64,000 bases of DNA from an uncultured Candidatus Saccharibacteria bacterium (GCA_964477745.1 CAYZEI010000002.1:5054-69053), one strand, 5' to 3'; positions 3,826 through 41,601 are shown, counted from the stretch's first letter. The notes: a model not told the origin generated them from the letters alone. Numbers and translations are program-made.

Positions 3826-3946
3826 TGGACAGAATTAAGTAAAATTGACCAAAATTGCTTCAGAATTGACTGAAAATTTTGGCAGGGTGGGATAATGATA
3901 ATATTTCAACCAATTCCTATCTAGCATACCAAAAAATCACAAGTTT

Positions 3947-3955
3947 TGCTATAAT
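3947..3955 (+). promoter_or_regulatory. Extended -10 promoter element (TGcTATAAT) upstream of the 3982 gene
   Basis: TGnTATAAT match about 27 nt upstream of the start codon. Confidence 0.35.
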
Positions 3956-3981
3956 CTAATTATCTTATCTTAAACAAAAAT

Positions 3982-4845
3982 ATGCCCCTTTTAAAAGAAA
4001 AAATAGAGCTAGGTATTGAAGAGACGGAATTTCAAACACAAAAGTTTTTTGGTTCCATGAATCCTTTTTTTCGCTGGATGTTAATATTGGGAATCCTGGC
4101 AATTATTCCGTCATATTTCATAGCCAAATCTGTGTCACAAAAAATTTGGTCAGCTCGATATCAGCAAGGAGCCGTTGTGGCCAAGCCAAGCTTTACGGAT
4201 GCAAAACCTCCAAAAATTTCTAACGTCACCTTAACTAGCTTGGGGGACAACCTGTACTCGGCAGTGGTACAAATTACCAACGAGAATTTGGACTTGTCCG
4301 CCAATAATATTCCTTTTAATTTTAATTTTTATAACTCACAAAAACAACTTCTGTATTCCTATACCGATAAACTCTATTTGTTGCCCGACCAGAAAAAATA
4401 TCTCATCGCTCCAAGATTCTCTACCACCGAACAGATTTCCTTTGCGGAGCTAAAATTTACCCAAGATCCAAAATGGCAAAAACGCCTTAGTCTTCCTCAA
4501 GTAAAATTAACCGCATCTACCCCAAACAGCTACGACCAAATATCTCCTCAGGCATTTGTCTTGGAAGGAAGCTTTGTAAATAACAGTGTTTACACGTTAA
4601 AAGAAGTCAGGTTAAATTTTGTGCTGTATGATGCCTCTAAAAAAATTATTGGGGCAAGTCGGCGCGACGAATTTACGGTGGCGCCGTTTGAAAGAAGAAG
4701 CTACAAACAACTTTGGCCAAATTTAAGCGCACCGACTTTAAGCAAAGCCGAAGTAACGGTAGAAACAAACACCCTGGACTCAAATAATATTTCTGTTATT
4801 AACATCCCGATTACCCCCGCGTCAGACTTAAGTCGACCAAAATAA
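3982..4845 (+). CDS. Hypothetical membrane-anchored protein (one N-terminal TM)
   Basis: 287-aa ORF with an N-terminal hydrophobic helix and no recognised domain. Confidence 0.5.
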   Translation: MPLLKEKIELGIEETEFQTQKFFGSMNPFFRWMLILGILAIIPSYFIAKSVSQKIWSARYQQGAVVAKPSFTDAKPPKISNVTLTSLGDNLYSAVVQITNENLDLSANNIPFNFNFYNSQKQLLYSYTDKLYLLPDQKKYLIAPRFSTTEQISFAELKFTQDPKWQKRLSLPQVKLTASTPNSYDQISPQAFVLEGSFVNNSVYTLKEVRLNFVLYDASKKIIGASRRDEFTVAPFERRSYKQLWPNLSAPTLSKAEVTVETNTLDSNNISVINIPITPASDLSRPK

Positions 4846-7266: not shown

Positions 7267-8148
7267 ATGAAAGTTGATAAAAAATTCCTTGGCCCGGCAA
7301 TATTTGCCATAATTATTTTACTAGGCGCATCTCTGCACCAATATTTTTACAATCAAAAAGTACTCAAAGAAATTGAGTACCAAAAAGCGGGGGACACGGC
7401 CTATCAATATTTAATTACTCCGAAAGATACCGCCGAACTACCGCAAACTACCGGACAAAATGTTAAATTGCCTATATTAATGTACCACCATGTCGGCCCA
7501 CTACCGGACAAACCGAGCGCTTTGCGACGCGATTTAACAGTTTCTACGGAAGATTTTGAAGCGCAGGTAAAATGGCTCGCGGACAACGGATATCACAGCA
7601 TCAAATTAAAAGAGTTCTACGAATATTCTTTAGGCAGATTCACCTTGCCAACAAAGCCGATTGTTTTTACCTTTGACGACGGCTACCAAGACGTCTTTTC
7701 TTACGCCGCCCCGATTTTAAAAAAGTACGGCTTTGTGGGGAGCTTTGCAATAATTACGCAATTCCCCAGCACACAAAACGGGGACAATACTTATGCCTCC
7801 TGGCAAGAGATTGCCACCGCTTACTTGGCCGGGAATGAAATTGTTTCTCATACCCAAAATCATTTTGACGGAAGTAACAAGAAATACTCAGCGGACTTTA
7901 TCCAAAAAAATCTCTGCAACTCAAAAACAGACATAAAGGAACACTTGGGTTTTGAAAGTAATATTTTAATATACCCTTACGGCCATTACACCACTCAATA
8001 CATAACGGAAGCAAAAAACTGCGGGTTTGACTTAGGCCTAACTGTACACGCCGGCAGTAAAATAAATTTGGATAACCTAATGGAAATTCCACGCCTCAGA
8101 ATTCACGGCAATCAAAATTTTGAAAAATTTAAACGACTTCTCCCATAA
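7267..8148 (+). CDS. Polysaccharide deacetylase (NodB-homology domain)
   Basis: TFDDGYQD motif and His motifs. N-terminal TM. Confidence 0.75.
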   Translation: MKVDKKFLGPAIFAIIILLGASLHQYFYNQKVLKEIEYQKAGDTAYQYLITPKDTAELPQTTGQNVKLPILMYHHVGPLPDKPSALRRDLTVSTEDFEAQVKWLADNGYHSIKLKEFYEYSLGRFTLPTKPIVFTFDDGYQDVFSYAAPILKKYGFVGSFAIITQFPSTQNGDNTYASWQEIATAYLAGNEIVSHTQNHFDGSNKKYSADFIQKNLCNSKTDIKEHLGFESNILIYPYGHYTTQYITEAKNCGFDLGLTVHAGSKINLDNLMEIPRLRIHGNQNFEKFKRLLP

Positions 8149-8150
8149 GA

Positions 8151-8190
8151 AAACCCACTATAATACGATATAGTATTATAGTGGGTTTTA
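8151..8190. terminator. Bidirectional terminator hairpin between convergent genes (cccactataatac-gatata-gtattatagtggg)
   Basis: 13-bp perfect stem flanked by A- and T-runs. Confidence 0.6.
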
Positions 8191-9027
8191 AAAAGTTATT
8201 TCCGCAAAACGCCAGAGGTTGTTAAAGTCTTTGTGAAATTTTATTTTTGCTTTCGGTAAGTATTTAATTACGTAATTAATTACGTATTTTTTTGTTTTTG
8301 GATCAATTTCTAAAAATACTACTTTCGGCATATGGGGGAGAGCGGATATTTGTTTTAATAAACGCTCATAAATGTCGAAGTCCTTGACCCGGTCAACCAA
8401 CGCGCCCTTAGGTTCCCATCTTAAATTTTTAAATCTTAAATCATAAATCTTCCTCGGCACATACGGCAAATTTGCCACAATTATATCCGGAACAAATTTA
8501 ATGTTTTTCAACAAATCGCTTTTTACAAACTTCACTTTTACTTTGTGAATTTTCGCGTTCTGTTTCGCCACCGCCAAAGCTTTCGCAGAAATGTCAGATG
8601 CGATATATTGGAGATTTAAGATTGGAGATTGGAGATTTTCGAACTGCTTGGCAATTGAAATTATAATGCATCCCGAACCCGTGCCAACATCCAAAATCCT
8701 AATTGGCTGTTTATAATCTTTAAATTTTAAATCTTTCAATCTTTCAATTAAATACTCCGTCTCCGGACGGGGGATTAGCACATTCTTATTTACCTTAAAC
8801 CGCAAGCCGTAAAAATCTTTATACCCCAAAATATAAGCCATCGGCTCACCCTTTTGCCTTCGCCTAATCATACTTGTCAGCTTGTTTCCTTGTATCCTTG
8901 TCAGCTTATACTCCGGATTCATAAACAAAAACTCCTTAGGCTTTTTCAGAACAAAAGCCAAAAGGAGCTCAATTTCAATTGAATGATATTTTGCTAAAAC
9001 TCCTTTGATAGTCGGGGTTGATTTCAT
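8188..9027 (-). CDS. prmC: Release factor glutamine N5-methyltransferase
   Basis: SAM motif ILDVGTGSGCI. Catalytic NPPY variant (NLPY). Confidence 0.85.
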   Translation of the reverse strand: MKSTPTIKGVLAKYHSIEIELLLAFVLKKPKEFLFMNPEYKLTRIQGNKLTSMIRRRQKGEPMAYILGYKDFYGLRFKVNKNVLIPRPETEYLIERLKDLKFKDYKQPIRILDVGTGSGCIIISIAKQFENLQSPILNLQYIASDISAKALAVAKQNAKIHKVKVKFVKSDLLKNIKFVPDIIVANLPYVPRKIYDLRFKNLRWEPKGALVDRVKDFDIYERLLKQISALPHMPKVVFLEIDPKTKKYVINYVIKYLPKAKIKFHKDFNNLWRFAEITF

Positions 9028-9073: not shown

Positions 9074-9433
9074 ATGATAACAGTTGCAGTTTCTCAGGTT
9101 ACCGTGACCAAAGTAGACACGGGGGATGGGATATTCTACACAATATCGGAGAACAACTTCGGATCTTTGCATCACGTCTCGTTCTTCGAAGTAGGTCTTT
9201 GCCGGATTCTAAACAAGTTGGAGCAATTCCTGAAATATGACGAGTACGATGTCCCGCCGACAGAAGAAGTCCAGCTAGGTGAGATGATAGGCTTTGTGAA
9301 AATTTGGCAGCTGACTGGTACCAAGCGGAGTATTTCACTAACCAAAAAGCAAATCACAGAACTTCTCATTTGGCTTGTCGACACAGACAACCTTCGAAAA
9401 AGCACCACTGGATGGTGTATCGTCAACAACTGA
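9074..9433 (+). CDS. Hypothetical protein (119 aa) in GC-rich islet inserted between prmC and prfA
   Basis: Strong SD (GAAGGAGGAAGC) 9 nt upstream. GC-rich codons. No recognised domain. Confidence 0.45.
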   Translation: MITVAVSQVTVTKVDTGDGIFYTISENNFGSLHHVSFFEVGLCRILNKLEQFLKYDEYDVPPTEEVQLGEMIGFVKIWQLTGTKRSISLTKKQITELLIWLVDTDNLRKSTTGWCIVNN

Positions 9434-9529: not shown

Positions 9530-10597
9530 TCAATTCTTTAACGCTTCTTTTTTTGCTTCTAAATCAGCTTTCTTTAAGGCATCTGTAATGAGGTCAAACT
9601 TACCTTCCATAATCAAATTAATCTGGTTGAAGTTTTGGTTTATACGGTGGTCAGTTACGCGGTCTTGGGGGAAGTTGTAGGTACGGATTTTTTCACTTCT
9701 GTCGCCGGTACCAATTTGGCCTTTAGTTAAACTGCGAATTTTTTTGTCTTCAATTTCCTGATAATGTGCGGCCACACGAGCGCGAATAACCGCCAAGGCC
9801 TTTTCCCGGTTTTGCGCCTGACTGCGTTCGTCCTGACACTGAGCCGTGATACCGGTAGGAATGTGTAAAATGCGAATAGCGCTGTAAGTTGTGTTAACCG
9901 ACTGTCCGCCGTGACCGGAAGAAGTGGTGGCTTCCATTTTTAAATCTTTCGGGTCTATGCTGTAATCTTTTTCTTCCAGTTCCGGCAAAACCGCCACAGT
10001 CACAGTGGAAGTATGTACCCGTCCCGACTTTTCGGTATCCGGCACGCGCTGGACACGATGCACGCCACTTTCAAACTTAAACTTGGAGTAAGGACCTTCG
10101 GCTCCGCCTTTTCCATGAATTTCAAAAATTACTTCCTTAAAACCGCCGGCGTCTGAGCGGGAGGAGGACATAATATAGGGTTTAAACTTATTTTCTTCGG
10201 CAAACTTGCCGTAGGCGCGAAAAATCTCCGCGGCAAAAAGCGTGGATTCGTCCCCACCGGCTCCGGCGCGAATTTCTATAATACAGTTTTTGTCATCGTT
10301 TGGGTCTTTAGGCAGTAAGGCGTCTTCGATTTCAGATTTGAGATTTATGATTTCAGATTCCAAGCGACGACCTTCGTCTAAAGCCATAGATTTAATTTCC
10401 GGATCCGGATCGATCAATAGTTTTTTATTCTCATCCAATTCTTTAATCTTTAAACCATAATTTTCAATCTTGCTTGCCACCGGCGCCAATTCCGACTGTC
10501 TTTTGCCCAATTTGGCCATATCAAAAGTACCGCCCGAAGACATTTGCTCCGTGAGGCTGGCGTATTCATCTAAGATTTTTTGAAATCCTGGTTCCAT
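9530..10597 (-). CDS. prfA: Peptide chain release factor 1
   Basis: GGQ motif (SGHGGQSVNTT). RF1-type tripeptide region QRVPDTEKSGRVHTS. Confidence 0.95.
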   Translation of the reverse strand: MEPGFQKILDEYASLTEQMSSGGTFDMAKLGKRQSELAPVASKIENYGLKIKELDENKKLLIDPDPEIKSMALDEGRRLESEIINLKSEIEDALLPKDPNDDKNCIIEIRAGAGGDESTLFAAEIFRAYGKFAEENKFKPYIMSSSRSDAGGFKEVIFEIHGKGGAEGPYSKFKFESGVHRVQRVPDTEKSGRVHTSTVTVAVLPELEEKDYSIDPKDLKMEATTSSGHGGQSVNTTYSAIRILHIPTGITAQCQDERSQAQNREKALAVIRARVAAHYQEIEDKKIRSLTKGQIGTGDRSEKIRTYNFPQDRVTDHRINQNFNQINLIMEGKFDLITDALKKADLEAKKEALKN

Positions 10598-10629
10598 ATA
10601 TTTAGTTACTTGGGAAATAGAGAACTAGA

Positions 10630-10725
10630 AAAATAGTGAGTTAGAAAATTAGAGGATTAGATTTTCTCACTCTCTGTATCTCTAATTCTCTGTATTTCTT
10701 GCCTTGTTCATTCTAACATAAAACC
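10630..10725. repeat. Imperfect long palindrome in the prfA 5' region (purine-rich arm gagaa/tagaaa units mirrored by ctcact.../ttctct...)
   Basis: An inverted-repeat arrangement is visible on direct reading. Confidence 0.35.
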
Positions 10726-10770
10726 ACCCCAAACAAAACGTCAGGATGGTCTTATTAAAGTTTTATTAAA

Positions 10771-11321: not shown

Positions 11322-12041
11322 ATGAAAGACGTAACTCTTTTAGAGTTGCTCAAAAGCGGAGCGCATTTCGGACACACCACCTCCAGGTGGAACCCAAAAA
11401 TGAAACCGTATATTTTTACGGTTCGCAACAACATCCATATTTTGGATTTGGAAAAGACCAAAAAAGCCTTGTTAAAAGCGGCTAAGTTCGCGGCGGAAAT
11501 TTCCAGCCGTGGCGGTACCGTGTTATTTGTCGGAACCAAGCGCCAAACCAAAGAATTGGTGAAAAAAGCAGCCGAGGCTTGCGGTAGCCCGTATGTAAAT
11601 GTCCGCTGGTTGGGTGGTACTTTCACTAATGCCAAAACAATCCAAAAGACCATTCGCAAAATGGAAAAATTGGAAAACATGAAGCAAACCGGGGAATTGG
11701 CCAGTCACTATACCAAAAAGGAACGCTTAATGGTAGAAAGAGAAATCGAAAAGTTAAAGAAACTTTTTGAAGGTATCCAAAATATGAAAAAGCTTCCGGA
11801 TGCCATTTTTGTTACCGACGTTAAGCATGATGACATTGCTATTAAGGAAGCTCAAAAGAGCAAAGTCAAAATTATCGGCCTTGTGGACACCAACAGCAAC
11901 CCAGAAGGAGTCGACTATATGATTCCTTGCAACGACGACGCCACCAAAGCGGTTGAATTAGTCTGCTCAGTTATTTCCGAAGCTATTTCCGAAAGCCGAC
12001 AAACTCAAACTTTGGTAAAAGACAGCCAGCCAATAAAATAA
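11322..12041 (+). CDS. rpsB: 30S ribosomal protein S2
   Basis: LLKSGAHFGH...RWNPKM signature. Confidence 0.95.
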   Translation: MKDVTLLELLKSGAHFGHTTSRWNPKMKPYIFTVRNNIHILDLEKTKKALLKAAKFAAEISSRGGTVLFVGTKRQTKELVKKAAEACGSPYVNVRWLGGTFTNAKTIQKTIRKMEKLENMKQTGELASHYTKKERLMVEREIEKLKKLFEGIQNMKKLPDAIFVTDVKHDDIAIKEAQKSKVKIIGLVDTNSNPEGVDYMIPCNDDATKAVELVCSVISEAISESRQTQTLVKDSQPIK

Positions 12042-12145
12042 TAGTCCAAAATAGAATTATTAAGAACTAAATCCTAAAACTGAACAATAATCAAATTTAA
12101 AATTTGTTTAGAAATTAGGAATTAGATATTAGAAATTAAACCTAT

Positions 12146-12727
12146 ATGTCTAACGACTTACTAAAAGAGCTCCGCGAACTGACCGGAGCAGGAATGTTGG
12201 AAATTAAACAAGCTCTAACGGAAACCGGAAACGACAAAGAAAAAACCATTGAACTGTTACGCAAAAAAGGCGCACTTAAAGTGGGGAAAAAAGCCGACCG
12301 TATTGCCAATGAGGGTTTAATTGAAACTTATATCCATCCGGGAAATCGTGTTGGTGTACTTATTGAAGTTAACTGCGAAACTGACTTCGTCGCCAGAACC
12401 GATGACTTTAAGAACCTGGCCAAAGATTTAGCCTTACACATCGCCGCCGCAAACCCTCTTTACGTAACTTCAGCGGAAATTCCGGCCGAAGTTGTGGAAA
12501 AAGAAAAGGAAATTTACAAAGAACAGGTTAAAGGTAAACCGGCCGAAGTTGTGGAAAAAATTCTGGAAGGAAAAATCGCCAAATATTACGAAGAAGCTTG
12601 CCTAATGGATCAGCCGTATGCAAAGAATCCGGACTTAAAAATTCGCGAGGTGCTGGCTGAAGCTGTGGCAAAAATGGGTGAGAAGATTGAGGTTAAAAGG
12701 TTTGCAAGATTTGTATTAGGTAATTAA
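12146..12727 (+). CDS. tsf: Elongation factor Ts (short form)
   Basis: LRELTGAGMLEIKQAL...LRKKG N-terminal UBA-like motif. Confidence 0.9.
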   Translation: MSNDLLKELRELTGAGMLEIKQALTETGNDKEKTIELLRKKGALKVGKKADRIANEGLIETYIHPGNRVGVLIEVNCETDFVARTDDFKNLAKDLALHIAAANPLYVTSAEIPAEVVEKEKEIYKEQVKGKPAEVVEKILEGKIAKYYEEACLMDQPYAKNPDLKIREVLAEAVAKMGEKIEVKRFARFVLGN

Positions 12728-13943: not shown

Positions 13944-14129
13944 AAACGCTTCAATATATTATCATTTTTTTAACCATTTGGTCAATAAGCGACATTTAAA
14001 AAAATTACCTAAAGCCTTTACACAACCCCAAATAAATGATATTATTTAATGTTTCCAACTTGTAGGAGGAAACAAACTCCGCTACCGAGAGGGTAGCAAA
14101 GTCAGACGTGATGTTTGAGGAGTGTAAAT

Positions 14130-14555
14130 ATGCCAGTAACAGGCAAGTCCGAAGTCCATGCCCTGCAATACGCAGCGTGCATGTTTATGAACATTCTAGA
14201 CCAGGTACTGTGGTGCCGCCTTGATGGCGGGGAGCCGAATGAGAAAGGTCTCAACATCGAAGTGTCCCCGGGGAAGACCAAAAACGATTTCAAAGTTTTA
14301 ATCCATCCGGTAGGGTGGCCTCAGGAATCTAACATCCACAGCAGGTTTTCGGGCAATGACAAGATCGGATGGCACTTTTGGGAAGCCACTATCGATGCAC
14401 TGCATTTAATGCAAGACGGAAAACAGTTCAACGTTTTCTTCCAGATGAATACCGCCGCATGCTGGAAGAGACCGACATTCCACTGTTTTACGAATGGAGG
14501 AGCAGCCTTTTTTAAACAGGCGGCTTTCGAGGCTGGGTTCACCGTAGAGGACTGA
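14130..14555 (+). CDS. Hypothetical protein (141 aa) in GC-rich islet next to the tRNA pair
   Basis: ATG at 14130 with GAGGAG SD 7 nt upstream (the track ORF starts at TTG 14115). No recognised domain. Confidence 0.45.
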   Translation: MPVTGKSEVHALQYAACMFMNILDQVLWCRLDGGEPNEKGLNIEVSPGKTKNDFKVLIHPVGWPQESNIHSRFSGNDKIGWHFWEATIDALHLMQDGKQFNVFFQMNTAACWKRPTFHCFTNGGAAFFKQAAFEAGFTVED

Positions 14556-16886: not shown

Positions 16887-17051
16887 TTGTTTCCTTAAAA
16901 AGTTAATTTGTACCGGTTTATTATAGCAAAATTTTCATTCCTGACAAAGGCTCTGGAAACTTTTTCTTACATATGCTAAACTAGCTCAACTGAAATTTGC
17001 CCCTGACAAACCGGGGGTGGTATCAACAAACAAGAATAAGGAGTGAAGACA

Positions 17052-17390
17052 ATGGCTACACAGGCCACTGGTCAACAGGTTATTACCGGATTCATCGTCC
17101 GGCGGTGGAAAAATGAGTTCCTCTCCCGCAAGGGAGAATGGATTGAACAGCCTCAAGGGATAGTGTGTGCATTCGTGCACCAACTTGAAGAGATTCTGAA
17201 CATCGACAGGACAATCATCAACCAGGCACAGTACATGTACTTTGGGGAGTACTCCCCAGAGACTGGCTTTGCCAAATCCAGGAGCCTGCCGTTAGCGGTC
17301 CCAAAGGAATTCAGAAATTTCCAAGATGACCTGGCAGAGGCGGTACTGGAACAAATGACGGTCAACCTCAAGGCCACACAAACGCCATAG
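17052..17390 (+). CDS. Hypothetical protein (112 aa) in GC-rich islet
   Basis: ATG with AAGGAGTG SD (the track ORF starts at GTG 17043). About 50% GC by eye. Own terminator. Confidence 0.45.
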   Translation: MATQATGQQVITGFIVRRWKNEFLSRKGEWIEQPQGIVCAFVHQLEEILNIDRTIINQAQYMYFGEYSPETGFAKSRSLPLAVPKEFRNFQDDLAEAVLEQMTVNLKATQTP

Positions 17391-17473: not shown

Positions 17474-17539
17474 AAAGACTAGACTTTTTTAAGGTTTTAT
17501 GTCAAAATATATTGAGTTTGTTACCCCACTTATCTTATT

Positions 17540-17615
17540 GCCAGCTTAGCTCATCTGGTAGAGCAACGGTTTTGTAAACCGTAGGTGGTCGGTTCAAGTC
17601 CGACAGCTGGCTCCA
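17540..17615 (+). tRNA. tRNA-Thr (anticodon TGT), CCA encoded
   Basis: Acceptor gccagct/agctggc; anticodon loop ttTGTaa; T-loop ttcaagt. Confidence 0.85.
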
Positions 17616-17757
17616 CTACTTCGTCCCGATGAATTGGGACTACGAAGTGCGGGCATTACTTTCCATGTTGGGATCAATCATGGAATAAAAAAGATTTCTT
17701 TCGCCAAAGCAATCTTTTAATTTTTCAATTTTAAATCATTAAATTTTTAAATTACCT

Positions 17758-17913
17758 ATGTCCCAAGATCATTTGATAAACCTGGAATGTACAGTTTGCC
17801 ATAACTTAAATTACCAGACCAAAAAAAACAAGAAGAATACCGCCAAGCGCTTAGAACTTCAGAAGTTCTGCAAACAGTGCAAAAAGAAAGTCATGCACAA
17901 AGAAACAAAGTAA
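17758..17913 (+). CDS. rpmG: 50S ribosomal protein L33 (51 aa)
   Basis: Translation [51 protein letters not shown]. Cys-x2-Cys pairs typical of L33. Below the ORF-track size cutoff. Confidence 0.8.
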
Positions 17914-17991
17914 TATTATAGAAGCAAGAAAATTGAGTTGTGTATTAAGTAACCCTTGATTCTCGATTCTAGATTCTTGCTTCTATTTAAT

Positions 17992-18065
17992 AGGGGTTTG
18001 GTGAAGTGGTATCACAAAGGTCTCCAAAACCTTCGTCGTGGGTCCGATTCCCACAGCCCCTGCCA
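17992..18065 (+). tRNA. tRNA-Trp (anticodon CCA)
   Basis: Acceptor aggggtt/agcccct. Anticodon stem-loop aaggt-ctCCAaa-acctt resembles E. coli tRNA-Trp. The T-loop reads tccgatt (C at position 55), which is unusual. Confidence 0.75.
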
Positions 18066-18214
18066 CGTAAAATTCACTCGTCGGACTCGCTCATCACGTG
18101 GCATGCCCAACGAATACACAACTTCTACGAACGTGATAAAAAAATAAGAATTTTACGTGATCGCGTGCGACATAGTGAATCTATGGACTTTACGCGACAC
18201 GAAAATATAAAGCC

Positions 18215-18469
18215 ATGCACTACGTCTATCTTCTCGAATGCCAAGATGACAAATCCTGGTATATCGGCCAAACAGACGACCTCAAAGCTCGAGTGAAACG
18301 CCACAACGACGGTTCTGGCGCTCGCACTACCGCCCGTAAAGAAAATTGGAATGTAATTTACTTTGAAGCCTATACTGAAAAACTAGACGCTCTCGGAAGA
18401 GAAAAGTTCCTGAAAAGCGGTTCTGGGAGAGCATATCTCAAAAAACAACTTAGGCATTATCTAAATTAG
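18215..18469 (+). CDS. GIY-YIG nuclease family protein (UPF0213-like)
   Basis: YVYLLECQD..WYIGQTDDLKARVKRHN motif. Confidence 0.75.
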   Translation: MHYVYLLECQDDKSWYIGQTDDLKARVKRHNDGSGARTTARKENWNVIYFEAYTEKLDALGREKFLKSGSGRAYLKKQLRHYLN

Positions 18470-18475
18470 CCAAAG

Positions 18476-18528
18476 AAACTTCTCTATATTTAGAGGAGTT
18501 TTTTTGTTGAGGGCTGTGGGAATTGGAC
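18476..18528 (+). repeat. Repeat R copy 1: terminator hairpin (cttctcta-tatt-tagaggag + T7) plus conserved 25-nt tail (gttgagggctgtgggaattggac)
   Basis: About 85% identical to 19353..19405. Confidence 0.55.
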
Positions 18529-18534
18529 TAAAAG

Positions 18535-19269
18535 GTGTATAATGAAATTAAAATTATATTTTTTAAAAAGTTAATTTTTTCCAAAAATATGTGGATTTTT
18601 ACTGAGGAAGAAAAAAAGATAATTTCTTCAATCGTACAAAAAGGTAGGATTGAGCAGCAAAAAAATGAAAAATTTGCCATAATGGATTTTGGTAATTTTT
18701 ACAAACTTTTTTCAGATGAAGAAATCAACCTAATTCATAAATATATTGCTATAAACCCGGAGGAATTAAATTACAGACTTCCTTATCTTGGAATGACAGA
18801 AATCCCAAATGACTTAATACCAATTTCGGGGCAAGTTTATAAAAAAATGGGTAAACATCAAACTATTCCTTGTCAATTCCTTCCTAAAAAGACATTCGAA
18901 GCGTATGAGCTACTTAATGAAGCGATTGAAAAAGACATAAACAAAAAATTATTAATATTATACGGTTACCGGTCACCGGCAAGGCAAGTTTTTATGTTTT
19001 TTGATATTTTAGAACGTATATATAGTTTTGATTTTAGTAAAACCTTGCAAAGAGTTTGTTTTCCAGCTTATAGCGAACATGTTTACCCTTTGCGGCAGGC
19101 AATTGATTTTGTTACCCCAGAAGAAGGCACTGATAACTTTGACAAAACAGTTGAATACAGCTGGTTAAAAGTGAACTCGAAAAAATACAATTTTTTTGAG
19201 TCCTACCCCAAAAACAACCAACTAGGCATGATGTTTGAGCCTTGGCATTGGCACCATGAATTTTTTTAA
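18535..19269 (+). CDS. Peptidase M15-like (VanY/D-Ala-D-Ala carboxypeptidase-like) protein
   Basis: SEH...AID and EPWHWHH motifs resemble M15B zinc-peptidase signatures. The true start may be a later ATG. Confidence 0.55.
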   Translation: MYNEIKIIFFKKLIFSKNMWIFTEEEKKIISSIVQKGRIEQQKNEKFAIMDFGNFYKLFSDEEINLIHKYIAINPEELNYRLPYLGMTEIPNDLIPISGQVYKKMGKHQTIPCQFLPKKTFEAYELLNEAIEKDINKKLLILYGYRSPARQVFMFFDILERIYSFDFSKTLQRVCFPAYSEHVYPLRQAIDFVTPEEGTDNFDKTVEYSWLKVNSKKYNFFESYPKNNQLGMMFEPWHWHHEFF

Positions 19270-19282
19270 ATTTATTTAAGAG

Positions 19283-19382
19283 CTGGGATACGAATATAAT
19301 TATTCAATCCCTGAACCACAGTTCTAACATCCTTCACCACGTCCTGCCAGAAAAACTTCTCTTACGTTAGAGGAGTTTTTTT
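19283..19382 (+). ncRNA. Candidate small RNA or 3' module A1: TATAAT (19295-19300) followed by about 75 nt of conserved core ending in the R-type terminator
   Basis: Paralogous to 19985..20086. Shared blocks gaatataattatt, agttctaa, tcct..ac, tcctgcca.aaaaa. Confidence 0.3.
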
Positions 19383-19405
19383 GATGAGGACTGTGGGGGT
19401 TGAAC
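19353..19405 (+). repeat. Repeat R copy 2 (terminator + conserved tail)
   Basis: Direct repeat of 18476..18528. Confidence 0.55.
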
Positions 19406-19412
19406 TTTTTTA

Positions 19413-19444
19413 GTCTGGACAAATCCAGGCTTTTTTGATATACT
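19413..19444 (+). promoter_or_regulatory. Hairpin with T-run overlapping a sigma70-like promoter (-35 TGGACA, 17 nt, -10 TATACT) for the 19484 ORF
   Basis: Spacing and hexamers on direct reading. Confidence 0.4.
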
Positions 19445-19483
19445 TCGATGTTACTAAAGCAATACATTTTACAAGGAGTGTTA

Positions 19484-19924
19484 ATGCAGAAGCCTTTTTT
19501 TGTTCCGCGTATTCTCGGTGACGATGAGGATTTTCCTATTAGTCCCAACGACATCGATGTCACAAACGAATTTAACTTTGTAGGAGCGTTCGACGTTCCT
19601 GATTCAGACAACGACAACCCCAACGACAGATACAACAATCAGAAAATGAACGAGGGAGCCACAATCGTTGTCAATACTTGCCAGAAGCAGGGGCATTGGG
19701 GGCCGTGCAATCCCTATGAGCTGACTGGATTCCATGAGGAAGCCACATTCTCATTGACCACCTTCCTGAAAGGAAGGCATCAGTTTAACGGTCTCGTAAT
19801 TAGGGGGGAAGACGGTCTGTGGCGTGTTACGGATAAGTTTATCATTTACTGCTATATGGCCGCTCCCAAAATCCGTACCAAACCCCGCCAGCTCCCTCCC
19901 ACCGCAAATCAAATCGAAGGCTGA
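19484..19924 (+). CDS. Hypothetical protein (146 aa) in GC-rich islet
   Basis: ATG with AAGGAGTG SD 6 nt upstream. Asp/Asn-rich N-terminal region and Cys pairs. No recognised domain. Confidence 0.45.
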   Translation: MQKPFFVPRILGDDEDFPISPNDIDVTNEFNFVGAFDVPDSDNDNPNDRYNNQKMNEGATIVVNTCQKQGHWGPCNPYELTGFHEEATFSLTTFLKGRHQFNGLVIRGEDGLWRVTDKFIIYCYMAAPKIRTKPRQLPPTANQIEG

Positions 19925-19984
19925 ACAGCGACGCCGTCTGCGTACCTCCAGGGTACAAAGACGGCGTTTCTAGTTAGTTAAATT

Positions 19985-20086
19985 AAATTTGGTATATGAA
20001 TATAATTATTTCTGTTTTAATAATAGTTCTAAGATTCCTTACAACATCCTGCCATAAAAAACCATAGCTGATGTTATGGTTTTTTA
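19985..20086 (+). ncRNA. Candidate small RNA or 3' module A2 (TATAAT 20001-20006; terminator ccatagctgatgttatgg + T6)
   Basis: Paralogue of A1. Confidence 0.3.
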
Positions 20087-20119
20087 TGTTTAGAACCCAA
20101 AGTGCTATACTCAACATAT

Positions 20120-20365
20120 ATGAAAATTCAAGTCTTAGGTTCGGGTTGCGCTACTTGCAAAAAATTGTTTGAAATCACCAAAACCGCGGTCAAGGAAATG
20201 GGAATGACTGAGGAAGTGGAATATATTACCGACTTTCAACAAATCCTCAATATGGGCCTTATGTCCAGTCCGGTTTTGGCAGTGGACGACAAACCGGCTC
20301 TGGTTGGTTTTGTGCCGAACGTAGCGGAAATTAAAAAAGCGATTTTAAAAGCAAGTACAAAATAA
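20120..20365 (+). CDS. Thioredoxin-fold 'redox-active disulfide protein 2'-like small protein
   Basis: MKIQVLGSGCATCKKL CxxC motif. Typically partnered with a DUF318-type permease. Confidence 0.6.
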   Translation: MKIQVLGSGCATCKKLFEITKTAVKEMGMTEEVEYITDFQQILNMGLMSSPVLAVDDKPALVGFVPNVAEIKKAILKASTK

Positions 20366-21333
20366 TGAATCTATTTTACCCAATCCAATTATTTTCAGAC
20401 TGGCTGGCTTTTACGGTGTTTAAACTGGCGCCCAAAAGTTTAGCAGGGGAGGCAGTGAATTTTTTTATTTTTGATTCCATAAAAATATTTATTCTGCTGG
20501 CAGTAATTATTTTTATAGTTTCTATTATCCGTTCCTACCTACCGCCGGAAAAAATTCGGAATATTCTGGCTCACAAAAACCAATACACAGGCAATGTAAT
20601 AGCTTCTTTGCTTGGTATTGTAACGCCGTTTTGTTCCTGTTCAGCCATTCCTTTATTTTTAGGCTTTGTGCAAGCCGGAGTGCCTTTGGGCACAACTTTT
20701 TCTTTTTTAATTGCCTCACCAATGATAAACGAAGTGGCCTTAGTTTTGCTACTTGGACTTTTCGGTTGGAAAATCGCCGGCCTCTATATTATTAGCGGAC
20801 TTTTTATTGCCATTATTTCCGGAATAATAATTGGAAAATTAAAAGTAGAAAGCTTGGTTGAATCTTTTGTATATCAGAACACTGTACCGGGTAATGCAAG
20901 CCTACCCACACTGACAACAAAAGAAAGAATTGTTTACGCCCGCAATTATACTTTAGAAATTTTAAAAAAAGTTTGGCCATATATTTTAGTTGGTATTGGT
21001 GTAGGTGCTTGGATACATGGTTACGTACCCACTGACTTTTTGGCCAAATATGCGGGAAACGGTAAATGGTACGGCGTGCCTTTAGCTGTCTTAATTGGCA
21101 TTCCACTTTATTCCAATGCCGCCGGGGTAATCCCATTAGTTTCCGCACTCACTGAAAAAGGAGTCAGTATGGGCACCACCTTGGCTTTTATGATGTCCGT
21201 TACCGCGCTGTCCTTACCGGAATTTATGATCCTAAAAAAAGTTATGAAAACAAAACTCCTCTTTATTTTCGCCGGAATTGTTGCTATAGGGATTACACTA
21301 ACCGGATATTTGTTTAATTTTATTTTAAAATAA
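20365..21333 (+). CDS. Permease (YraQ/DUF318-like)
   Basis: Polytopic membrane protein with a CSCS motif. Start overlaps the upstream stop. Confidence 0.65.
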   Translation: MNLFYPIQLFSDWLAFTVFKLAPKSLAGEAVNFFIFDSIKIFILLAVIIFIVSIIRSYLPPEKIRNILAHKNQYTGNVIASLLGIVTPFCSCSAIPLFLGFVQAGVPLGTTFSFLIASPMINEVALVLLLGLFGWKIAGLYIISGLFIAIISGIIIGKLKVESLVESFVYQNTVPGNASLPTLTTKERIVYARNYTLEILKKVWPYILVGIGVGAWIHGYVPTDFLAKYAGNGKWYGVPLAVLIGIPLYSNAAGVIPLVSALTEKGVSMGTTLAFMMSVTALSLPEFMILKKVMKTKLLFIFAGIVAIGITLTGYLFNFILK

Positions 21334-21349
21334 CCATCTCCTGAACCTA

Positions 21350-21378
21350 TTTAAGCCCTTGATTTTTCAAGGGTTTTT
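21350..21378 (+). terminator. Terminator (cccttga-ttttt-caaggg + T6)
   Basis: Hairpin with T-run. TGtTATTATAAT follows. Confidence 0.6.
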
Positions 21379-21420
21379 TGTTATTATAATTTGTTAAATC
21401 GATCCAAAGGAGGATCAAAA

Positions 21421-21819
21421 GTGCCGTTTAAAAACTGCATAGTTCACACGGATATCACACCCGAAGGCACGAAAGTGCTTCGGGTAACCGGAAGGCTCGT
21501 CTGCCAAGCCGACAGGCATGAACTCAACAAGAATGCCGATCAGCTTGCGCCGAGAAAGGGCGCTGGAGGACAAACTTACATCATTGATTTGTTGGCGGTC
21601 AAAGCGATTGCCGAGCCTGGACTCACAGCACTCAAGTTCGCAACCAACCGGTTTGTCAGCTTCGGGAACAGAGTGGCAATCTGCGCCGAGAAAAAGCTCG
21701 TAATCCCTGAATGGTATGTGATACTCCCATTCAGCGTGCCGGTGTACCACTCCTTTCAGGAAGCAGTGGACTCACTCAATACCAAAACGGAGGTCACTGA
21801 TGGACGCCGTGGGGATTGA
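21421..21819 (+). CDS. STAS-domain (anti-sigma-factor-antagonist-like) protein in GC-rich islet
   Basis: GTG start with AAAGGAGGA SD. IIDLLAVKAIAEPGLTALKFA aligns with the SpoIIAA DLSGVTFMDSSGLGVL block. The Ser position is E/A, so it is non-phosphorylatable. Confidence 0.4.
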   Translation: MPFKNCIVHTDITPEGTKVLRVTGRLVCQADRHELNKNADQLAPRKGAGGQTYIIDLLAVKAIAEPGLTALKFATNRFVSFGNRVAICAEKKLVIPEWYVILPFSVPVYHSFQEAVDSLNTKTEVTDGRRGD

Positions 21820-22063
21820 GGTCATGCGCTTGATGGTGTTCATTCACCACAGTAGCTGGGCGGTTGCGGTGGTGGGCGTCGCTGGAGTATTATCGTTCTT
21901 GCTTGCAACTCGCACCCAAAATGCAACTCTTAGACGCACCATTTTCGCTATCAGTGCCGTCGCGATAACGTTCTTTATGGCAACAGGCTTGTCGGTTGGC
22001 CCAATGGACGACTGGCAACACCAGCACGGCACCTGCCTGCTTGAGTCCCTGAAAAAAAAGTGA
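21800..22063 (+). CDS. Small 2-TM membrane protein, translationally coupled to the STAS gene
   Basis: ATGs overlap (ACTGATGG). GGAGGT SD inside the upstream gene. Confidence 0.35.
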   Translation: MDAVGIEVMRLMVFIHHSSWAVAVVGVAGVLSFLLATRTQNATLRRTIFAISAVAITFFMATGLSVGPMDDWQHQHGTCLLESLKKK

Positions 22064-22136
22064 CCAAGCACGCAACACACCAAACTCGAGGCAGGGACGC
22101 ACAACGCGACCCCGCCTCTTAACATATATATAAAAA

Positions 22137-22532
22137 TTAGTTACAAGAAGAATATTCTCCCAAGCAAACCTTTTTACCGGATAATTGCAAATCTACCAAA
22201 CCCCCGGCGTTGCGAACGTTTGTAAAACCGTTTTTCTGCAATATTTGCATTGCCTGCCCGGCTCGGTTTCCACTACGACAATATAAAGCAATTGGAGCAT
22301 CTTTAGGCAAGTCCGGCAGTTGCCCTTGTTGTATTTTTGCTAAATCCAAATGCACCGCCCCATTTAAATGTTCAGTTTGCCATTCTTCATCTGTTCTAAC
22401 ATCCACAAAAATTTCCGCTTGGCTCAAGACTTGCTGGTTTACTGGGCTATTTTTTTCGCCCCCACGTAAAACAACCCCTCCAATTACTACGACAACCAAA
22501 ATAATTAACCCAATGATAATTTGTTTTTTCAT
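22137..22532 (-). CDS. Rhodanese-domain sulfurtransferase with N-terminal TM/signal
   Basis: Active-site loop YCRSGNRAG. Confidence 0.75.
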   Translation of the reverse strand: MKKQIIIGLIILVVVVIGGVVLRGGEKNSPVNQQVLSQAEIFVDVRTDEEWQTEHLNGAVHLDLAKIQQGQLPDLPKDAPIALYCRSGNRAGQAMQILQKNGFTNVRNAGGLVDLQLSGKKVCLGEYSSCN

Positions 22533-22596
22533 ATCTTTTTTAATTATTCTTAGAAATATTTAAATACCACTTGACAAGATTTTGTAGATTATATAT

Positions 22597-22618
22597 CATT
22601 CAAGTAATCACTTGAATG
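22597..22618 (+). promoter_or_regulatory. Candidate ArsR operator (cattcaagt-aatc-acttgaatg) in the divergent promoter region
   Basis: 9-4-9 inverted repeat immediately upstream of arsR, next to TTGACA. Confidence 0.45.
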
Positions 22619-22634
22619 TAATCTATCCTATATT

Positions 22635-22943
22635 ATGGATCAACTAAAAATAAAAAGCAAGTTGCTAACCCCGGACCTAACCAAAAAGGCCCGGCTATTA
22701 GAACTGGCGGGGGACGAGACCAGAATTCGGATTCTTTGCACTTTGTTTGAACATAACAATGTTTGCGTCTCTGACATCGCCAAAAGCTTAAAAATGAGCG
22801 TAGCAGCCGTTTCCCACCATTTACAGCTTATGCAAGAACACAAGCTAACATCATCCATCCGAGACGGAAAAAATATTTGCTATTCACTAAATAAAAATCC
22901 ATTAACAAAATATTTAAGGCAATTTATTTGCCATAAGGAGTAA
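22635..22943 (+). CDS. ArsR/SmtB-family transcriptional regulator
   Basis: Winged-HTH block RIRILCTL...VSDIAKSLKMSVAAVSHHLQLM. Confidence 0.8.
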   Translation: MDQLKIKSKLLTPDLTKKARLLELAGDETRIRILCTLFEHNNVCVSDIAKSLKMSVAAVSHHLQLMQEHKLTSSIRDGKNICYSLNKNPLTKYLRQFICHKE

Positions 22944-22947
22944 AAAT

Positions 22948-23184
22948 ATGTCTCAACACAATGTAACCATTTATTCTACCCCGACTTGTTCATACTGCAT
23001 TATGAGCAAAAATCTTTTTGATAAAATGGGCGTACAATATAAAGATATAGATGTCAGCAAAGACCATGCCGCGGCCATGGAAATGGTTAAAAAAAGTGGG
23101 CAAACCGGAGTGCCGGTAATAGATATAGACGGCAATATTCTTGTCGGTTACCAACCCGCTGCCTTTGACCAGTTATTAAAATAA
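22948..23184 (+). CDS. Glutaredoxin-like protein
   Basis: CSYC active site. Thioredoxin fold of about 78 aa. Confidence 0.8.
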   Translation: MSQHNVTIYSTPTCSYCIMSKNLFDKMGVQYKDIDVSKDHAAAMEMVKKSGQTGVPVIDIDGNILVGYQPAAFDQLLK

Positions 23185-23189
23185 ATTAC

Positions 23190-24089
23190 ATGAACACAAA
23201 AAATGAAGGTGCCCTGGATCGCCTAATCAGAATTCTTATTGGGGAAGTCCTACTGCTGTCCGGATTTTTCTGGCTTTGGGGCACTTGGCAAATTATTGCT
23301 TATGCTTTAGGCGTAGTTGCTGTATTTACCGCCTTTAGCGGATTTTGTTTGTTGTATAAACTTTTAGGAATATCCACAAATCAAAACCCTTTAGGAAAAG
23401 CCTCCAAAATTTTCAGTTTTGTTTTATATTTGTTAATAATCATTCTGCCTGTAGTTGGAAGCTACTATAGTAATTTCTTTACAAAAAAAATCTTTTTGGA
23501 AGATTACAGCAAAATGAATGAACCTTATAAGCAAACTTTGTTTTTTACCGGGCAGGACAAAAGACAAGAGTCTAAGGATAATTACCAAAAATTGGTTTTA
23601 GAGTTTGAAATTTTTTCTAAAAAATATTCTGCCTTTCACCCTTATATAATTAGAAAAGATGCTCAATTTAATAATGACTTGAAAAAAGTTTCGCAAACCA
23701 TAACCAAACTTTCCGACACAATAAACACCGGTAATTTAAAAGATGCCCACTTAACCCTGGAAACTGTGCGTCCGGTATTCCAAGATATTCTTAAACGCAA
23801 CAATTTTTCTATGCTTGCAGTGTCCTTGGTAGACTTTCATGATTCTATGGAAGTTGTTATAGCCGCAGCGGATAAAAAAGATTCAGCCGGGGTAATTTCT
23901 GCCTATGCTGATGCCGACGCCAAACTCAAAGCTGTAGAAGCGGAATCCAATGACAGCGAAATTCAAACCATTCGCCAAAAATTGGAAGAAACTTTAAGCT
24001 TAGCTAAAGAAGGAAAGGCCGACAGTCTTTCTGCCAAAGCCGGCGAACTCAAATCCGCCTTTGTAAAAGTCTACCTCAAAAGGGGATAA
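23190..24089 (+). CDS. Hypothetical membrane protein (N-terminal TMs, C-terminal soluble domain)
   Basis: ORF and hydropathy only. Confidence 0.5.
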   Translation: MNTKNEGALDRLIRILIGEVLLLSGFFWLWGTWQIIAYALGVVAVFTAFSGFCLLYKLLGISTNQNPLGKASKIFSFVLYLLIIILPVVGSYYSNFFTKKIFLEDYSKMNEPYKQTLFFTGQDKRQESKDNYQKLVLEFEIFSKKYSAFHPYIIRKDAQFNNDLKKVSQTITKLSDTINTGNLKDAHLTLETVRPVFQDILKRNNFSMLAVSLVDFHDSMEVVIAAADKKDSAGVISAYADADAKLKAVEAESNDSEIQTIRQKLEETLSLAKEGKADSLSAKAGELKSAFVKVYLKRG

Positions 24090-24114
24090 TCTTGTAATAA
24101 TTCTAAGGTAATAG

Positions 24115-24160
24115 TCAAAAACCTCCTGTATTTGCAGGAGGTTTTTTGGTATAATTAATT
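24115..24160 (+). promoter_or_regulatory. Terminator (aaacctcctg...caggaggttt + T6) fused to extended -10 (TGgTATAAT)
   Basis: On direct reading. Confidence 0.6.
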
Positions 24161-24383: not shown

Positions 24384-25649
24384 ATGAAAACCAAACTCAC
24401 GGCCATTTTCTCTTTTGTCCTATTAAACTTTTTTGCTTTTGCCCAGTACGCTGTTGCCCGCGGTGGCGGAGGGGGTTCAAGCGGTGGCGGAGGGGGAGGA
24501 GGCGGGGGTGGTAGCAGTTTTAGTGTTCATACAACAGGTTCTTCCGGCTCTGGCTCAGGCAGTTTTAGTCCTTGGATGCTCTTGTTTCTAATTATTCCAG
24601 TCGCTGGGATAATTATAGCCTTTAAAAACAAACAGCGGCTTTTGGCTTTGGCCAAAATGAACGATGAAAACATTATCGCTAAAAATCATCTGGATAGAAA
24701 TGCTCTATATGCCGAGGTTGAGAATCTTTTCCAAAATTTCCAGAAAGCCTGGAGCGAATTTGATTTTAAAACTATTGAGCAGTTAGTCACTCCGGAATAT
24801 TACAAACGTATGGTGCTGGAACTTTCGGTGCTACAAAACGAAAACCGCGCCAACTTAATGAGTAACGTAATTGTGACGGAAATGTTTGTCATTGGTGAAG
24901 AGCAACCGGGCGAAACCACACAAAAACTTAACTTGCAAATTAGTGCCTCTGCGCATGACGTACTCCAAGACACAAAAAATAACAAAGCCCTATTTACCGA
25001 CAACAGCAGTTTTACCGAGTACTGGCACTTAGTGCAAACACCGGACAGAAGATGGGTCTTGGATTTTATTACCCAAGAAACGGAAGACCTTAATATGTTC
25101 GAAAAAGGCATTGCGGAATTTTCCCGGAAAAATAATTTTTACTATGATGCGGACTTTGGCTGGCTAATGATGCCGGACAAAGGCGTAATATTTAACAGAA
25201 CCAATTTTGGCAAAAGCGATATTAACAACCATGTAATTGGTTATTTCCGGGAAAAGATTGTGGAATTTTACACTTACATTCCGGACACCTATTCCAAGAA
25301 CCCGGAAAATTACCTTGTGGCCCAAGCTATTTTACCGAAAAGCTATAATAACATCTTAATAAAGAAAAAGAAGTTTTTAAGCATGCCGATTTGGGGCTTA
25401 AAAAAAATGTCTTTGGAAAGTGTGGACTTTAATAATAAATTTTCCATTTGGGCTCACGAAGAGGACCAAATTAATTCCTTGGAACTTTTAACCCCAAACT
25501 TCATGGAAAAAATTTACAACTTGCCGTTTGAACTCAACATTGAACTGGTCGGCAATACACTCTATTTTTACACCAAAGACAGGGGAGCAGACAACTACCC
25601 GCAAATGCTGGAAATAATTTCCTGGGCGTTTGATGAAATGAAAATGTAA
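24384..25649 (+). CDS. Membrane-anchored protein with Gly/Ser-rich linker and possible Tim44-like domain
   Basis: Signal peptide, (G)n(S)n tract, TM, then a DFKTIEQLVTPEYYKRMV... block. Confidence 0.45.
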   Translation: MKTKLTAIFSFVLLNFFAFAQYAVARGGGGGSSGGGGGGGGGGSSFSVHTTGSSGSGSGSFSPWMLLFLIIPVAGIIIAFKNKQRLLALAKMNDENIIAKNHLDRNALYAEVENLFQNFQKAWSEFDFKTIEQLVTPEYYKRMVLELSVLQNENRANLMSNVIVTEMFVIGEEQPGETTQKLNLQISASAHDVLQDTKNNKALFTDNSSFTEYWHLVQTPDRRWVLDFITQETEDLNMFEKGIAEFSRKNNFYYDADFGWLMMPDKGVIFNRTNFGKSDINNHVIGYFREKIVEFYTYIPDTYSKNPENYLVAQAILPKSYNNILIKKKKFLSMPIWGLKKMSLESVDFNNKFSIWAHEEDQINSLELLTPNFMEKIYNLPFELNIELVGNTLYFYTKDRGADNYPQMLEIISWAFDEMKM

Positions 25650-41214: not shown

Positions 41215-41601
41215 CTAGCTGGCGAGTCCTGTGACCAAGAGCTTGCCGTCTTCAATAACAGCGTTTTCCCGTGTAACGGCTTTTCCGGCCGGAGCCCCAT
41301 GTTTTGTGGTGGTGATGGTACACTTTGGCCCTGCGGACGATGGCCTCAGGTCGACTTCGATTTCTACTTTTACCCTAGGGCTGTCCATCGAAAAGACAAC
41401 CTTGTCCATACTCAGTTCGCAGGTCACCTCACAGCCATCACGAGATGACCAGATCTCTGAGATCTTTTCATCTGTGACTGTATGGGACATGTACCACGCT
41501 ACGGCATTTTCTGCCTTTTTGAGGTGGTTCCAGAACCGCATGAATTCTCCTGGGCGTGCCCAGTTAAGCCTTAGTGCGACCAATGTATCAAACATCTTCA
41601 T
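41215..41601 (-). CDS. Hypothetical protein (about 126 aa) in GC-rich islet
   Basis: AAAGAGGA SD. The true start is probably the second ATG (41595). No recognised domain. Confidence 0.45.
   Translation of the reverse strand: MKMFDTLVALRLNWARPGEFMRFWNHLKKAENAVAWYMSHTVTDEKISEIWSSRDGCEVTCELSMDKVVFSMDSPRVKVEIEVDLRPSSAGPKCTITTTKHGAPAGKAVTRENAVIEDGKLLVTGLAS

Follow-up and report, generated by a model that had tools for sequence, protein, structure and literature searches.

A GC-rich cassette in a Patescibacteria genome pairs a predicted divergent STAS-domain-only protein with a small two-helix membrane protein encoded in an overlapping frame

Introduction

What is understood of proteins that consist of a STAS domain alone comes almost wholly from kinase-driven partner switching or from STAS domains appended to large transporters. 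The SpoIIAA-type antagonists (SpoIIAA, RsbV, RsbS, and RsfB; PF01740) are proteins of approximately 115-130 amino acids whose fold combines a sheet of four to five strands with four helices in the order β1-β2-α1-β3-α2-β4-α3-β5-α4, with a DxxxVxxI-x-x-G segment at the β3/α2 junction. SLC26/SulP proteins carry their STAS domain at the C-terminus, behind a transporter part of 14 helices. MlaB, which belongs to the MlaFEDB lipid transporter, is a stand-alone STAS protein: it contacts the ABC ATPase MlaF, takes part stoichiometrically in a membrane complex, and is not driven by phosphorylation. The STAS fold itself is known already, and STAS-only proteins devoid of a phospho-site are not unusual. 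The CPR/Patescibacteria, in turn, have very small genomes, and most of their small proteins are uncharacterised.

Here, we describe a cassette in a 64-kb stretch of Patescibacteria DNA (the window) that encodes ORF A, a predicted STAS-domain-only protein, and ORF B, a predicted two-helix membrane protein. ORF A resembles the SpoIIAA-type antagonists in length and modeled fold, and its sequence aligns with their β3/α2 segment; unlike them, it has a glutamate in place of the phospho-serine, has no kinase or phosphatase gene nearby, scores below the Pfam thresholds, and is encoded by a gene overlapping that of a small membrane protein rather than that of an anti-sigma factor. The role proposed below for ORF A would be comparable to that of MlaB, but no ABC transporter adjoins the cassette, and the match to the MlaB STAS domain, which came out on top when the PDB was searched with the family profile, was not significant (E 0.2 over approximately 40 residues). 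As in SLC26/SulP proteins (structural matches with E 5e-4 to 5e-3), the STAS domain would be tied to a membrane part, but ORF A is a separate protein encoded before the 87-aa ORF B, which has no SulP similarity. New in this locus are the conserved overlap with a previously unseen two-helix family, the extreme rarity of both families, and the mosaic behavior of an exchanged cassette. The initial annotation regarded a STAS protein with a miniature membrane partner as a module not described before, and we likewise found such a pair neither in the literature nor among the Pfam, NCBIfam, and PADLOC models.

Results

The cassette occupies positions 21352-22130 of the window, with defined boundaries, and forms a self-contained transcription unit in which a 5' hairpin and -10 box are followed by the ribosome-binding site (RBS) and GTG (21421) of ORF A, the overlapping ORF B, and a 3' hairpin. 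The two plus-strand ORFs fill 21400-22100, where GC content was 0.51-0.54 (53% for the cassette, compared with approximately 40% in the rest of the window), in agreement with the two-gene GC-rich cassette originally proposed. The GC content at third codon positions (GC3) was 0.60 and 0.66 in the two ORFs versus 0.29-0.49 in ordinary host genes. Codon bias due to high expression was ruled out as the source of this richness, given that four-fold sites of the host HU, L33, and S2 genes are rich in C and poor in G, whereas both G and C are enriched at those of the cassette; judged by base composition, the cassette is foreign. Two independent assemblies (L001 and L002) carried the identical cassette with identical flanks, and the locus is therefore not an assembly artefact or chimera. 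No terminal inverted repeats, direct repeats, or target duplications were found at the cassette ends, and no integrase or transposase was present among the Pfam-called neighbours; unlike a transposable element or an integron cassette, the unit lacks terminal repeats and has its own promoter-like site.

The 5' boundary is a hairpin detected by a terminator scan (21353-21382, plus strand), with a 10-bp stem (AAGCCCTTGA-TTTT-TCAAGGGTTT) followed by a T-run and a folding energy of -20.5 kcal/mol. It was identical or nearly so in two related loci, L083 (a 111-kb contig from a related genome) and L085, and no co-directional gene lies upstream of the L083 copy; the hairpin acts as the terminator of the upstream ArsP permease in the window, yet moves along with the cassette. 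A 28-nt portion, TAAGCCCTTGATTTTTCAAGGGTTTTTT (21352-21379), recurred identically in five IMG/VR viral contigs (L090-L094), where a promoter again followed the hairpin and nothing else was shared, save one short tRNA-like match in L094. This recurrence in unrelated contigs marks the hairpin as a generic terminator, and the five viral contigs matching its 20-mer were rejected as cassette relatives because only the 28-nt terminator is common to them.

A promoter scan placed a sigma-70-type promoter-like site at 21359-21390 (plus strand), with a -35 element TTGATT (21359-21364) and a -10 region at 21382-21390 (TATTAT/TATAAT); the TATAAT box was kept in all three loci, and the site would be expected to drive the cassette. 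A TTG at 21391 was dismissed as an alternative start, since it falls inside the promoter region and a GTG or ATG with its RBS is kept in all alleles.

At the opposite end, a 3' non-coding element (22064-22130, plus strand) combines a CA-rich stretch with a downstream GC-rich hairpin (22088-22118; -21.1 kcal/mol, z -5.7; -23.3 kcal/mol for the L083 counterpart). The hairpin is terminator-like with an imperfect T-tract, and the element occurs once in the window. It was 72-77% identical to that of L083, compared with only 38-57% for the central coding part; taken together, the hairpin/-10 box and the approximately 65 nt of 3' non-coding sequence were 72-95% conserved. The CA-rich stretch, ACCAAGCACGCAACACACCAAACTCGAGG (22064-22087; 10680-10705 in L083), was itself conserved between alleles above the level of the coding sequence. 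A metagenome search with the 3' 20-mer yielded no further cassette variants: its three matches (L086-L088), all in high-GC contigs and two of them inside an actinobacterial-type gene, were treated as chance. One of these contigs, L087 (1280-1320), contained the hairpin 20-mer together with an adjacent ACAACACCAAAC in reversed order, probably by chance. Within 21300-22200, Rfam gave nothing except a sub-threshold AbsR28 match at the terminator (E 0.64).

ORF A (21421-21819, plus strand) encodes 132 amino acids, one fewer than the 133 first assigned, from a GTG at 21421 that is supported as the start by a conserved AAGGAGG RBS 7 nt upstream (21407-21413; also present in L083 and L085). The protein alone matched nothing in Pfam (E<=1) or NCBIfam. 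Searched exhaustively with HMMER, a set of 1.84 billion representative proteins contained only three relatives (50%, 48%, and 35% identical), and a profile search of 5.8 billion clustered proteins added none, leaving a family of four clusters (P0001, P0003, P0004, and P0005). Three of the four members matched the Pfam STAS family PF01740 (E 6e-6, 2e-4, and 2e-3), with scores of 26.4 bits for P0005, 21.5 for P0004, and 18.0 bits for P0003; only P0005, which is 35% identical to ORF A, passed the gathering threshold of 22.6 bits, and the P0004 and P0003 matches covered nearly the whole profile. The STAS membership of ORF A, itself below the Pfam thresholds, accordingly derives from the homology of its relatives and from its fold.

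AlphaFold2 run on the four-sequence alignment produced a model of ORF A with a pLDDT of 84.7 and a pTM of 0.79; prediction from the single sequence reached a pLDDT of only 49, so that the alignment-based model alone was informative. The modeled order of elements was β1-β2-α1-β3-α2-β4-α3-β5-α4 (strands at 6-12, 18-26, 52-63, and 84-89, and a short strand between the helices at 97-101 and 112-121; further helices at 29-42 and 65-82). Foldseek searches of the PDB with this model returned SpoIIAA (1tid), mycobacterial and other anti-sigma antagonists, RsfB, RsbS, and SLC26 STAS domains at the top, with E values from 2e-5 and target-normalised TM-scores of 0.64-0.79, and the best matches were almost all STAS proteins. 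The STAS fold that the initial annotation had read by eye and proposed to check with AlphaFold is borne out by this model and by the PF01740 matches of the relatives, and ORF A is, according to the prediction, a highly divergent STAS-domain-only protein. A single-sequence PDB search ranked archaeal and eukaryotic ribosomal protein S11 best (E 0.2-0.5, residues 3-48), the likeness lying in window 21421-21565 (FKNCIVHTDIT... against FNNTIIHITDIT..., E 0.2). An S11 identity was ruled out, as these E values are not significant, the likeness was lost with the family profile, which placed the MlaB STAS domain on top, and the fold is that of STAS.

The phosphorylatable serine of the antagonists had been described as replaced, and hhalign against SpoIIAA, RsbV, and RsbS reference sequences indeed set Ser58 of SpoIIAA opposite Glu65 of ORF A. 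The equivalent residue is Lys in P0003, Glu in P0004, and Asp in P0005, and ORF A has no phosphorylatable Ser or Thr at the N-terminus of helix α2. With the serine replaced, partner switching by a kinase and phosphatase cannot control the ORF A family. The reported absence of a partner kinase, anti-sigma factor, or SulP transporter nearby stood within the 64 kb, the kinase search being a weak one: phmmer with SpoIIAB and RsbW seeds found nothing below E 0.7 among all ORFs of the window. No HATPase_c, PP2C, or sigma-factor genes occurred among the Pfam-called neighbours in the window, L001, and L083. No SulP-type transporter lies beside ORF A, the adjacent permease being ArsP_1 (PF03773), which is not beside the L083 cassette, and neither the window nor L083 or L085 has ABC transporter genes (mlaF/mlaE) beside the cassette.

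ORF B (21800-22063, plus strand) starts with ATG and encodes 87 amino acids. Hydropathy analysis delineated two membrane-length segments (approximately residues 5-36 and 46-66), as expected for the two-TM protein of the first description. Two motifs are conserved: HHSxWA, which precedes the first helix, and ATGLSVGxxDxWQHQHxxCLLExL, which lies in the second helix and continues past it. By the positive-inside rule applied to the sequences, the short loop would be cytoplasmic and the conserved termini outside.

The Shine-Dalgarno sequence noted for ORF B inside the upstream gene was confirmed: GGAGGT (21789-21794, plus strand) lies within the ORF A coding sequence 5 nt upstream of the ATG, and (A/G)GGAG is present in all three alleles. 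Residues K122 and E124 of ORF A are invariant, which is probably explained by this embedded RBS in the coding sequence. The proposed overlap of the ORF A stop with the ORF B start also held, but the stop had been misplaced: the TGA inside ACTGATGG (21798-21800) does not lie in the ORF A frame. The true stop of ORF A is the TGA at 21817-21819, so that the two frames overlap by 20 nt. In the relatives, the overlap is shorter, being ATGA (4 nt) in L083 and TGATG (1 nt) in L085. Relative to both of them, the window has a 1-nt indel within 21796-21819 that puts the ancestral stop out of frame, and its ORF A is consequently longer by six codons; the resulting DGRRGD tail is disordered in the model.

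The pair was present in both of the other loci with DNA across the junction: an ORF A homologue is followed by an overlapping ORF B homologue in L083 (93 aa) and in L085, which answers the co-occurrence check attached to the initial annotation. On sequence evidence, only three related genomes, all of one narrow Patescibacteria clade, are known to carry the pair. The most distant and most canonical family member (P0005/P0006) is a solo STAS protein of ordinary composition with no downstream membrane partner, and the pairing therefore belongs to the GC-rich sub-family and not to the whole family.

Both ORFs remained open in the three alleles despite saturated third codon positions, and all indels between alleles were multiples of 3, save the one at the A/B junction. 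Between ORF A alleles, the fraction of differing sites was 0.29-0.38 at first and second codon positions and 0.52-0.60 at third positions, and RBSs and start codons were conserved. Long ORFs exist on both strands of this GC-rich DNA, and one gene caller took an antisense ORF over ORF B; the antisense ORFs (21415-21750, 21844-22125, and 21890-22102) were dismissed because their frames are not conserved among the alleles. The open frames, the excess of third-position changes, the conserved RBSs, and the non-conserved antisense frames together indicate that ORF A and ORF B are real genes.

The three ORF A alleles (window, L083, and L085) were about equidistant, with 48-50% amino acid identity, in contrast to the 86-96% DNA identity of the flanking host genes. 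Third-position divergence was 0.52-0.60 between alleles versus 0.18 for AdoHcy hydrolase (window versus L083) and 0.06 for ArsP (window versus L085), and GC3 was approximately 0.6 in all alleles. Between the window and L085, identity was 97-100% up to approximately 21395 and dropped to approximately 40% within approximately 30 nt after the -10 box; between the window and L083, the first third of ORF A was relatively similar, at 62-88% identity. L083 and L085 shared 82-93% identity across the ORF B region, with ORF B proteins 81% identical and ORF A proteins only 48%, a combination indicative of mosaicism. Because rapid evolution in place would leave synonymous sites short of saturation, the alleles must be old lineages imported by recombination. 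The sequence comparisons thus indicate that the alleles were replaced rather than evolved in place and that they are mosaics of one another. No cassette relatives outside the family were found in the viral, phage, or other bacterial sequences searched.

Six more small GC-rich ORFs of the window share this composition (GC3 0.54-0.61) and have no Pfam match: 9074-9433, 14115-14555, 17043-17390, and 19448-19924 on the plus strand, and 41215-41601 and 58593-59021 on the minus strand. At least two of the six have their own GC-rich terminator hairpin directly after them. In the syntenic slots of L083, whose flanks are 86-90% identical, the ORF at 17043 is only 26% identical to its counterpart (8104-8436), and that at 14115 is unrelated to the ORF at 3889-4254. 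As these sequence comparisons suggest, the STAS cassette may be one case among many GC-rich, hypervariable orphan genes that form a class of their own and are replaced at fixed slots throughout the genome.

The window neighbours of the cassette are Trx_3, ArsP_1, rhodanese, ArsR, glutaredoxin, and YgaP-like genes. The permease is 70-83% identical to permeases in approximately 80 Patescibacteria genome bins, a likeness on which we base the assignment of this AT-rich genome to the Parcubacteria/Nomurabacteria type, and Trx-ArsP with ArsR, often with rhodanese, is a common contiguous gene set in other Patescibacteria; neither ORF A nor ORF B was found in the Trx-ArsP loci of other species (0/80). 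The cassette had been placed between an ArsR-regulated redox locus and a permease. The adjacency stands, but these are not two separate units: ArsP_1 and the thioredoxin-like gene belong to the same ArsR-type set, and the cassette therefore lies inside that locus.

L083 is collinear with the window, with 86-90% DNA identity over S2, EF-Ts, TruB, and AdoHcy hydrolase, and its cassette (9932-10744) corresponds to 21352-22130. There, the cassette is flanked by an inverted tRNA-Thr/L33 segment and by a 72-aa gene (at 24164 in the window), in a neighbourhood without the thioredoxin-like, ArsP permease, rhodanese, ArsR, glutaredoxin, and YgaP-like genes. This different setting shows that the cassette is independent of the ArsR/redox locus, and the A+B unit is not dependent on the neighbouring ArsR, thioredoxin, permease, and rhodanese genes.

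The segment between the common anchors (window 17535-24116; L083 8466-10760) is a plastic region beside tRNA genes, with the tRNA-Thr/L33 segment inverted in L083. Absent from L083 are tRNA-Trp, GIY-YIG, VanY, a 158-aa orphan, Trx-ArsP, and rhodanese-ArsR-Grx-YgaP, and an AT-rich gene (approximately 30% GC) for a 220-aa protein with an HTH motif is inserted there on the minus strand. At the end of the L083 contig, 0.8 kb downstream of the cassette, lies a 246-aa ORF (11488-12228, plus strand) that neither Pfam nor PADLOC matched; its sequence leads us to suspect a transposase-like protein. Farther downstream in the window, a 421-aa protein (24384-25649, plus strand) has a signal or membrane segment at its N-terminus and, after it, a long Gly/Ser run (GGGGGSSGGGGGGGGGSS) that is responsible for a local GC peak at 24400-24600; its Tim44-like and DUF3137 matches are weak.

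Viral or phage origin was pursued by searching viral contigs with both protein alignments, by tblastn against phages, and by a BFVD fold search, and it was set aside as nothing relevant emerged. ORF A, ORF B, P0003, P0004, and P0005 had no PADLOC match, and the Pfam and NCBIfam toxin, antitoxin, and defence models gave none either. Two likenesses fell short of significance, namely that between the ORF B of L083 and 2TM_IV in PADLOC (E 0.019, 12 bits) and that between ORF B and the P21 holin S model (Phage_holin_2_1; E 0.28).

Discussion

Our data indicate that the cassette is an autonomous two-gene operon, exchanged horizontally, in a Patescibacteria genome of the Parcubacteria type. By analogy with the described systems, we consider it about an even chance (a probability near 0.5) that ORF A is a non-phosphorylatable STAS subunit acting with the co-translated membrane protein ORF B. 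As the frame of ORF B overlaps that of ORF A, both proteins should be made together, and the STAS protein could then serve as a cytoplasmic regulatory or stabilising partner of ORF B, much as STAS domains do for the membrane parts of SLC26/SulP proteins and MlaB does for MlaFE. We infer that the two proteins would bind physically, that ORF A would have a regulatory role, and that the pair would respond to a signal. The conserved His- and Cys-rich motifs of ORF B (HH, HQH, and C) are candidate ligand, metal, or redox sites, and a link to metal or redox sensing is suggested solely by these motifs and a neighbourhood that is not conserved. Several observations count against a partnership. With both termini of ORF B outside, as the positive-inside rule predicts, little surface would be left for a cytoplasmic STAS protein, and the swapping of ORF A alleles against a near-constant ORF B (L083 versus L085) argues against a tightly co-evolving interface. 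The solo STAS protein P0005/P0006 and the lack of a significant Pfam or PDB sequence match for ORF A alone point in the same direction.

The nearest structural matches of ORF A, namely SpoIIAA, RsbV-type antagonists, RsfB, and RsbS, would suit a classical partner-switching antagonist whose kinase and phosphatase are encoded elsewhere, ORF B being an unrelated membrane protein that is merely co-transcribed. JGI labels P0004 and P0005 'anti-anti-sigma regulatory factor', and the genome data span 64 kb only. We regard such a role as quite unlikely, however, since the four family members have Glu, Lys, Glu, and Asp at the phospho-acceptor position, the Pfam-called neighbours include no HATPase_c, PP2C, or sigma-factor genes, no SpoIIAB/RsbW-like protein appeared among the window ORFs (in a weak search), and the overlap with ORF B is kept in all alleles. 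The accidental long ORFs on both strands, the antisense ORF preferred to ORF B by one gene caller, and the absence of a family match for ORF A itself might instead indicate a functionless remnant of foreign DNA, with ORFs persisting by chance. That interpretation is largely refuted and retains very little probability: at saturated divergence, both frames are open in three alleles with indels in multiples of 3 except at the junction, second codon positions change less than third, RBSs and start codons are conserved, the fold of ORF A is predicted with confidence, and the antisense frames are not conserved.

A conflict module (toxin-antitoxin, abortive infection, or holin-antiholin) would make ORF B a membrane-damaging effector and the STAS protein its neutraliser or a trigger-sensing regulator. 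The resemblance to type II toxin-antitoxin pairs and class II holins lies in short overlapping genes with the soluble product upstream and in patchy, variable alleles; ORF B is also holin-like as a downstream two-helix protein of approximately 90 aa with a charged C-terminal tail. Such a module would fit the extreme patchiness (four clusters in 5.8 billion proteins), the foreign composition, the divergent, mosaic, and synonymously saturated alleles in near-identical flanks, as under balancing or frequency-dependent selection, and the plastic setting beside tRNA genes, where the window has a GIY-YIG gene and L083 is rearranged; the likenesses to P21 holin S and 2TM_IV, weak and not significant, go the same way. 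The cassette nevertheless differs from these systems in showing no similarity above noise in PADLOC, Pfam, or the NCBIfam toxin, antitoxin, and defence models, no adjacent lysin, and no relatives in phage or viral collections, and we know of no STAS antitoxin. Hypervariability is moreover not specific to the A+B pair, given that other GC-rich orphans in these genomes are equally hypervariable. On balance, we consider a conflict role somewhat unlikely. A broader conception, which we hold to be unlikely, would see A+B as a polymorphic recognition or conflict locus of episymbiotic Patescibacteria, in which a membrane effector or receptor is gated by a non-phosphorylatable STAS protein and ancient recombining alleles are held under balancing selection; its roles may include, for example, phage defence, host-cell interaction, or kin discrimination.

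The practical weight of the locus is limited by a tiny family, its metagenome-only occurrence, and a putative function. As a non-phosphorylatable STAS subunit acting with ORF B, ORF A would provide a clean natural case of a STAS domain without a phospho-site tied to a minimal membrane partner. If the two proteins bind, no simpler STAS-membrane module would be known, and the pair would offer a tractable means of learning what a bare STAS domain senses. Beyond the proteins themselves, the saturated alleles in near-identical flanks, the mosaicism, and the foreign composition mark a locus exchanged among close relatives, and this allele pattern may be useful for understanding gene flow in Patescibacteria.
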